From the sequence record PQ435408.1: a stretch of DNA of 64,000 bases. The stretch is one strand, 5' to 3'. The notes below the pieces were generated by a model. The model worked only from the letters and a program-made list of their open reading frames with translations. It searched no databases and had not been told where the DNA came from. The position numbers were made by a program, and so were the translations under genes. Numbering within the stretch: the first letter of the stretch is position 1; each line of letters begins with the position of its first letter. Source of the DNA: Escherichia phage vB_EcoP_CU10EC. Of the stretch, positions 17,723 through 17,783 are shown piece after piece.

Positions 17723-17783
17723 ACATTCACTTACTGTACAGTGAAACTTCTTATACGATATAAGTTTGAACAGGAATCATGCT

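Follow-up and report, generated by a model that had tools for sequence, protein, structure and literature searches.

The 103-nt spacer between the gp51-like structural gene and the virion RNA polymerase (vRNAP) gene of this N4-like coliphage is a well conserved but fairly ordinary control region. It carries a hexamer of the form TAnAGT, to which we give about an even chance of being the -10 element of a weak, activator-dependent late vRNAP promoter used by the host σ70 RNA polymerase. The hexamer overlaps a stem-loop that, judging from the covariation between lineages, has very probably been under selection as a structure. The perfect palindrome ACTGTACAGT, which the original prediction had put forward as an operator or promoter element controlling read-through into the vRNAP gene, is, on the sequences compared, an incidental and subgroup-specific by-product of the conserved hexamer overlapping the conserved stem-loop.

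Genomic context of the vRNAP spacer

The window (the whole stretch of 64 kb that was analysed) belongs to an N4-like coliphage of the genus Gamaleyavirus and shares ~96-97% identity with St11Ph5, ECBP1, EC1-UPM and pSb-1. According to the gene map the + strand carries the late genes (1-28229) and the - strand the early and middle genes. The genes and the terminator that frame the spacer, and the gene of the candidate activator, are as follows.

15734-17680, + strand: gp51-like virion structural protein gene, the upstream late gene (open reading frame; phrog_6126 'virion structural protein', E = 0)
17697-17722, + strand: intrinsic terminator with stem AAAGCCCC/GGGGCUUU, loop AUCC and T-rich tail TTTTCTCTT (RNA fold)
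17784-28229, + strand: virion RNA polymerase (vRNAP, gp50) gene (open reading frame; phrog_2206 'virion RNA polymerase')
33700-34497, - strand: gene for the N4SSB orthologue, acting in trans (phrog_743 SSB; comparison with N4 SSB; role according to PMC4496689)

The upstream structural gene is annotated as gp51 in St11Ph5, and relatives have the vRNAP gene annotated with a start at the ATG equivalent to 17784. The vRNAP is a protein of 3,500 residues encoded by a 10.5-kb gene; few copies are packaged per virion (1-2, compared to ~18 of gp51; PMC3715699), but no infection can start without it. The accessible literature does not document what sets its dose and timing against those of the abundant structural proteins encoded upstream. 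The stem of the terminator (17697-17716) has a predicted folding energy of -13.1 kcal/mol (z = -3.8), and stem and T-run are invariant in all relatives aligned and annotated as a terminator in PhAPEC5. The SSB orthologue shows 60% identity to N4 SSB over its full length of 265 aa and has conserved the C-terminal KSLFGK of N4 SSB, so that the activation region is present.

Spacers were aligned from 11 Gamaleyaviruses and then from 12 phages of four genera, N4 included. The sample was widened by a scan of IMG/VR and metagenomes with the invariant block downstream of the hexamer as anchor, which resulted in 24 distinct homologous spacers; 39 further matches to the anchor were chance matches and were left out. 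The 24 spacers represent Gamaleyavirus, Moovirus, Kaypoctavirus and Enquatrovirus (N4), and the spacer is homologous throughout these four genera.

Conserved hexamer and putative promoter geometry

The following elements of the spacer are relevant for transcription and translation of the vRNAP gene.

17714-17719, + strand: -35 position at a 17-bp spacer, TTTTCT (3/6 matches), overlapping the terminator T-run (geometry table)
17737-17742, + strand: TACAGT, a TAnAGT hexamer of -10 type and the candidate -10 for late vRNAP transcription (conservation, geometry and the parallel at gp69)
17746-17752, + strand: pyrimidine-rich linker with the predicted transcription start at ~17748-17751, where all indels of the spacer fall (geometry table)
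17753-17770, + strand: invariant leader box ATA(C)GATATAAGTTTGAA (alignments)
17772-17776, + strand: Shine-Dalgarno sequence AGGAA (invariant in the alignment; the AGGAA context also precedes other late genes)

In all 24 distinct spacers the T, A, A, G and T of TAnAGT are invariant, while position 3 can be C, G, T or A. The fixed positions 1, 2, 4 and 6 include the three that are most conserved in σ70 -10 elements (1, 2 and 6), and TACAGT at 17737-17742 accordingly has the T-12, A-11 and T-7 of such elements. The invariance of the AGT half is also accounted for by pairing with an invariant ACT, but base pairing fails to explain the T and A at the start of the hexamer, because these sit in the loop of the stem-loop in most lineages. 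Counted from the end of the terminator stem (GGGGC), the hexamer follows at a distance of exactly 23 nt in each of 15 lineages. Most positions between T-run and hexamer vary and the left arm of the stem-loop shifts, yet this distance stays constant. All indels of the spacer are located downstream of the hexamer, where the distance to GATATAAG of the leader box ranges from 13 to 15 nt, and from GATATAAG to the vRNAP ATG the distance is again fixed, at 27 nt. The two fixed flanking distances, with indels only after the hexamer, form the pattern that is expected of a promoter core, a start region and a rigid translation-initiation module. The original prediction of a promoter element is thereby supported for the right half of the palindrome: this half, TACAGT, is the invariant -10-type hexamer at a fixed 23 nt from the terminator, and its form recurs at the start of the late operon.

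The remaining promoter features are poor. Across lineages the -35 position reads TTTTCT or TTTTTT, with 2-3 of six matches to TTGACA, and a scan of 17000-18500 for consensus promoters gave no sites. In the window TG stands at -14/-13, one position out of register for an extended -10 (T-15, G-14), and an in-register extended -10 was found only in the outgroup Erwinia phiEaP8 (TGG-TAAAGT). In Enquatrovirinae only pyrimidines stand at the bases 6-9 nt past the hexamer, an unusual composition for a start site. Another TACAGT, at 11705, lies upstream of a different terminator; as it is not conserved in N4 we take it as a chance occurrence. A middle promoter for the N4 RNAPII was rejected, since those transcripts are confined to the other half of the genome and the other strand. 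TACAGT and TATAGT are working -10 hexamers in Escherichia coli, in the Anderson promoters J23100 and J23106. These hexamers are identical to those of the window and of N4, respectively, and N4 TAGGTATAGTG matches the -10 context of J23106; unlike the vRNAP spacer, both Anderson promoters have a near-consensus -35.

In the accessible literature on N4-like coliphages we found no mapped transcript 5' end for the vRNAP spacer, and no N4 late-promoter sequences were found in the accessible literature. The long-read study of LUZ7 by ONT-cappable-seq did not resolve the vRNAP transcription unit.

Conserved stem-loop and subgroup-specific palindrome

The hexamer is embedded in a stem-loop, which in the window consists of the following parts; the palindrome predicted originally is listed with them.

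17726-17731, + strand: left arm of the stem-loop, TTCACT (stem table, pair counts, minimum free energy folds)
17732-17739, + strand: loop TACTGTAC, ending in the TAC with which the hexamer begins (stem table, minimum free energy folds)
17740-17745, + strand: right arm of the stem-loop, AGTGAA (stem table, pair counts, minimum free energy folds)
17733-17742, no strand: perfect 10-bp palindrome ACTGTACAGT, subgroup-specific (sequence, motif and palindrome counts, alignments)

Across lineages the stem-loop has 5-9 bp. In every lineage the AGT of the hexamer opens the right arm and ACT closes the left arm, and the outer pairs co-vary, as seen in the stems of the main lineages.

This window: TTCACT, 8-nt loop, AGTGAA
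Moo19: CTCACT, 8-nt loop, AGTGAG
KP8: CACACT, 8-nt loop, AGTGTG
N4: TTACACT, 6-nt loop, AGTGTGA
G7C group: CTTACT, 4-nt loop, AGTAAG

A Watson-Crick stem of at least 6 bp with a loop of 3-10 nt, anchored in the same way, occurs at 0.4% of random anchors in the genome and at 0.6% of its 162 other TAnAGT sites. Within the group with an 8-nt loop (nine distinct sequences) 98% of the cells pair, double changes are present in two of six pairs and no pair is broken on one side only; none of 500 shuffles reached the observed score, and registers that were slid along the alignment gave 17-57% pairing. Counting all lineages, 71 of 72 core cells of 12 arm types pair, a proportion that is inflated since the loop-trimmed alignment was fitted to the stem register; slid registers gave 24-46% here, and double changes were found in three core pairs (C-G/U-A, U-A/A-U and C-G/U-A). 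A covariance-model alignment was left out of the pair counts, as it aligned the G7C-type sequences by sequence and not by their shifted stem. In all 15 lineages folded, the minimum free energy structure of the RNA contained the hairpin as a stem-loop of its own. Its energies range from -4.6 to -8.7 kcal/mol for RNA and are about -3 to -4 kcal/mol for DNA; the hairpin of the window, with its AU-rich 6-bp stem, is the one at -4.6 kcal/mol. These energies make a hairpin in RNA that has read through the terminator more plausible than one in DNA. A search against Rfam 15 gave no family match (best scores 15-16 bits, compared to gathering scores of 50-70), and a covariance-model search of the 64-kb window found no second copy of the stem-loop. 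The small palindrome CTTATA-CGA-TATAAG (17750-17764) was considered as a further structure and rejected, since a 1-nt deletion leaves it unconserved in N4, KP8 and Moo19.

As originally described for 17731-17746, ACTGTACAGT is a perfect 10-bp palindrome (17733-17742); it ends 42 nt upstream of the vRNAP ATG at 17784 and lies 17 nt downstream of the strong terminator stem. With at most one mismatch the motif occurs four times in the window against 3.6 expected, hence it is not enriched, and neither the palindrome nor the dyad has a second copy in the 64-kb genome. Among relatives only the ECBP1/St11Ph5/pSb-1 subgroup, L026 and Jgk1 share the perfect palindrome; at this position the sequence is ACTGTAGAGT in the G7C group and AATGTACAGT in Moo19, and KP8 and N4 diverge further. 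The palindrome is not used in the RNA and DNA folds because it is unable to close a loop; they bypass it and use the outer stem TTCACT/AGTGAA with its 8-nt loop instead. Perfect palindromes of at least 10 bp are no more frequent in the window than chance predicts, as 43 were observed compared to 63.5 ± 7.7 expected from first-order Markov simulations. A LexA box (CTGT-N8-ACAG) was rejected by inspection, as the half-sites abut in ACTGTACAGT. Nothing points to control of terminator read-through by the element, as had also been proposed.

Leader box and translation start

The leader box and the invariant block downstream of the hexamer occur only once in the window. The box ATAGAyATAAsTTTGwA is common to the leaders of two late genes that have TAnAGT upstream, gp50 and gp69, and is located 27-28 nt from the ATG in both. 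It contains AG|UUU, which resembles an RNase E site. In addition, an RNA helix is predicted between 17773-17778 and 17808-17813 (with inner pairs 17780-17807) that encloses the vRNAP AUG. Here, the Shine-Dalgarno region GGAAUC/GGAAAC pairs with GGUUUC of vRNAP codons 9-10, and the helix was predicted in 15 of 15 folded lineages, with its 3' side constrained by conserved codons. Folding thus suggests a helix that might hold vRNAP translation low.

A module TTGAAC(0-4 nt)AGGAA before the start codon was found at three late genes that follow a terminator (11042-11056, 11747-11762 and 17766-17776), and the N4 gp55/gp54 junction carries its counterpart, ATGAACCAATGAGGAA. It may be a common translation-initiation context.

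The hexamer at the late-operon start and in outgroups

The late operon begins with gp69, and a late promoter has to be located upstream of it. This upstream region is outside the window and was examined in the lineages compared. The longest invariant block there is CTAAAGTnTAA, which again has the form TAnAGT, and this TAAAGT is located 17 bp downstream of TTGTAA in N4 and KP8, of TTGTAT in an L027-type phage and of ATGAAC in Gamaleyavirus. No conserved dyad covers the gp69 hexamer across the lineages compared, and the hairpin is therefore specific to the vRNAP spacer. The gp69 leader box ATAGACATAACTTTGTAG is nearly identical to the vRNAP leader box but lacks T1 and T6. Consequently, the leader box is not a -10 element and TAnAGT is the only conserved -10 candidate. 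Taken together, the vRNAP and gp69 hexamers suggest a working consensus for N4-type late promoters. Downstream of the candidate late-operon promoter the gp69 leader holds a conserved hairpin of its own, CAAGGGG-N6-7-CCCCAAGAAAAGAATC.

Hexamers of the form TAnAnT also occur between terminator and vRNAP start in outgroups, namely TAAAGT in Erwinia phiEaP8, TAAATT in Erwinia Frozen, and TAAACT and TAGACT in the Achromobacter phages JWDelta and Axy10. Since TAnAnT is expected by chance in about one of three AT-rich spacers of 50 nt, these outgroup hexamers are weak, modest evidence. In JWDelta (~245-270) the terminator is directly followed by the hairpin GGGAGT-GGTAA-ACTCCC (6 bp, -9.9 kcal/mol as RNA), and TAAACT straddles its loop and right arm. 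This is the layout of the Enquatrovirinae with unrelated arms. In the related Axy10, TAGACT is present and the stem is not.

Proposed transcription of the vRNAP gene

We propose that the host σ70 RNA polymerase would read TACAGT (17737-17742) as the -10 for the vRNAP gene. With a very poor -35 on the terminator T-run, a phage SSB-type activator would be needed, as at N4 late promoters. N4 late genes are transcribed by host σ70 RNA polymerase that is activated by N4SSB (PMC4496689), and N4 late promoters resemble the σ70 consensus only weakly (PMC9163698). The terminator would stop most of the transcription that arrives from the upstream structural genes, and the promoter would restart a low, late-timed vRNAP mRNA near 17748-17751, with a 35-nt leader that holds the invariant box and the AGGAA ribosome-binding site. 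We infer promoter activity and start site here from conservation, geometry and the hexamer at the late-operon start, and activator dependence from the poor -35 and the presence of the SSB orthologue. If the promoter reading is right, the hairpin is absent from transcripts that start at this promoter. The stem-loop would then most likely form in the RNA of terminator read-through, as a leader stem-loop that stabilizes or insulates the transcript; it is less likely that it forms in the DNA and gates the promoter.

This proposal would place the spacer elements among kinds that are already known, probably an N4-type late promoter together with a phage leader hairpin. As with N4 late promoters, the site precedes a late gene on the late strand and combines a good -10 with a poor -35 and weak overall similarity to σ70 promoters; N4 itself has TATAGT in the homologous spacer, and the activator N4SSB (gp45) has its orthologue in the window. 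Unlike the gp69 site, the vRNAP -10 is embedded in a covarying hairpin and its -35 position is the T-run of a terminator. The arrangement is also comparable to terminator-promoter cassettes, in which a strong, presumably leaky terminator parts an abundant structural gene from a low-copy product and re-initiation or read-through sets the dose; examples are the leaky internal terminators of T7 and the terminators of LUZ7 with <50% efficiency. In stem and loop dimensions the hairpin is similar to leader and translational-operator hairpins in phage mRNA, such as the operator of T4 gene 43 (5-bp stem with a loop of 8 nt), and to the hairpin of the his pause (5 bp, 8 nt), with none of which it shares sequence similarity. 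Its location ~30-40 nt before the start codon of a gene for a polymerase is comparable as well.

[quoted passage not shown] The order of terminator, TAnAGT within a covarying hairpin and invariant leader box, kept from N4 to phages of Klebsiella and Shigella, provides a testable layout that can be used for annotation of Schitoviridae genomes and for engineering of these therapeutic phages.

Alternative explanations

It speaks against the promoter reading that read-through of a leaky terminator alone could supply 1-2 vRNAP per virion. It is conceivable, though in our judgement somewhat unlikely, that the spacer contains no promoter at all, that polymerases passing the leaky gp51 terminator make all of the vRNAP mRNA and that the conserved element is a leader RNA hairpin only. 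Stem-loop and GUAn loop end would then act in the RNA and TAnAGT would be kept for RNA-level reasons, with possible roles in protecting a processed 5' end, in insulating the folding of the ribosome-binding region or in binding a translational regulator. The covariation favours a structure, and so do the recovery of the hairpin by minimum free energy folding in all lineages and its energies (-4.6 to -8.7 kcal/mol as RNA compared to about -3 to -4 as DNA). The pairs that deviate from Watson-Crick, T.G in N4 and G.T twice in the stem extension of the G7C group (G-C in IME11), are wobbles on the sense strand; however, the C x A mismatch of L027 could be a wobble only on the antisense strand, which makes the inference on the strand weak. 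The ratio of 1-2 vRNAP to 18 gp51 per virion fits a pure attenuator, and the leader also has the predicted helix that sequesters the Shine-Dalgarno sequence. What a hairpin alone leaves unexplained is the invariant T and A in the loop beside a free position 3, the exact distance of 23 nt to the terminator and the presence of TAnAGT at the gp69 start, where it is the best-conserved block and no conserved dyad is found. The hairpin and the promoter could also be combined in the DNA, in a structure-gated σ70 promoter where a hairpin or cruciform takes up the 3' half of the -10 and leaves T-12 and A-11 exposed in the loop, with its formation depending on supercoiling or on single strands generated by replication. 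We regard this as unlikely, although there is a precedent for a role at the DNA level: an N4 hairpin inserted between the -35 and -10 of an rrnB promoter caused gyrase-dependent silencing (PMC4496689). If true, DNA hairpins would control both the early vRNAP promoters of N4-like phages and the late promoter of the vRNAP gene itself, vRNAP synthesis would be tied to the replication state via the SSB-type activator, and the layout in JWDelta with its unrelated arms would point to an ancient design.

A double-stranded DNA operator, with a dimeric regulator of phage or host on the inverted repeat that would repress or activate transcription into the vRNAP gene, seems quite improbable. The position of the dyad is conserved, symmetric changes in half-sites could mimic compensatory changes and the overlap with a candidate -10 is the classical position of a repressor. 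However, the gap between the arms is 8 nt in the majority of lineages but 6 nt in N4 and 4 nt in the G7C group, which puts the half-site centres ~12, 10 and 8 bp apart; such variable spacing is hard to reconcile with one protein family and fits a hairpin, not a dimer site. The perfect palindrome is restricted to a subgroup, and no second copy of palindrome, dyad or structure model was found in the 64 kb. There is also no candidate regulator known, and late control in N4 acts via N4SSB without DNA binding (PMC4496689). The operator role suggested originally for the palindrome is therefore not supported, given its limitation to one subgroup, its lack of recurrence and the arm spacing of the conserved dyad (4, 6 or 8 nt across lineages). 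Alternatively, the element could be a pause site, where the -10-like non-template sequence and a nascent-RNA hairpin halt the read-through polymerase ~11 nt downstream, so that a ribosome loads before the polymerase enters the 10.5-kb gene and protects it against Rho. σ70-dependent pausing at -10-like sequences is established biology, the dimensions of the hairpin (6 bp, 8-nt loop) are like those of the his pause, and the conserved G of GATATAAG is located 11-13 nt past the stem, with C|G at 17756/17757 in Gamaleyavirus. Against this, the base before the conserved G is A and not a pyrimidine in N4, KP8 and Moo19, the gp69 TAAAGT with its -35-like partner is left unexplained and the idea as a whole is pure inference; we consider it highly unlikely. 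Least of all can we credit a DNA hairpin promoter of the early, vRNAP-read class, or a second intrinsic terminator, both of which are barely conceivable here. N4-like phages do use short DNA hairpins as promoters (PMC4496689), and the early promoters of the N4 vRNAP are marked by a heptamer rich in GC and centred at -11, a loop of 3 nt whose central base is a purine, the bases -11R/-10G/-8G/+1C and a location at the early genome end (PMC4496689). The element in the vRNAP spacer shares with these a 5-7 bp inverted repeat centred ~11-14 nt upstream of the predicted start, with conserved inner stem bases and outer bases that are free but paired. Unlike them it is AT-rich with a loop of 4-8 nt, lacks -11R/-10G/-8G/+1C and belongs to the wrong region (mid-genome), strand (late) and temporal class, which contradicts the defining features. 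A T/C-rich stretch follows the hairpin, but the stem is AU-rich and weak (-4.6 kcal/mol) without a U-run and was not reported by the scan, and we rejected it as a terminator.

Terminator repeats and other palindromes in the window

Terminator copies are also found in a tandem array at 3490-4018, directly upstream of a gene at 4052, with periods of 133, 152 and 77 nt and 99-100% identity. Three of the units contain a complete copy (AAAAGCCCC-GTAA-GGGGCTTTTCT) and one lacks the left arm; each copy is followed by CCCCACTCTACTATAAATAAGTATTAT. Paralogy of the vRNAP spacer with these units at 3.5-4.0 kb was rejected, as the likeness past the terminator is weak. In IME11, AN24P2, BaqKoxi and 24-32N, ~215 bp of this segment are present as a single unit, and the closest relatives St11Ph5 and ECBP1 have no near match to it. 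By this comparison the tandem amplification is apparently confined to this phage, in a segment of mosaic appearance.

With 20 bp, ATGATTTCTTAAGAAATCAT (46888-46907) is the longest of the perfect palindromes; it lies inside an open reading frame on the - strand (46615-48402). Three other palindromes each occur twice: TTTTAGCTAAAA at 29538-29549 and 29693-29704, 155 nt apart in an intergenic and small-ORF region after the vRNAP gene, GGCATATGCC at 50080-50089 and 50301-50310, and GTACTAGTAC at 169-178 and 1903-1912. Such paired identical palindromes may mark local repeats or regulatory sites in the early/middle region.
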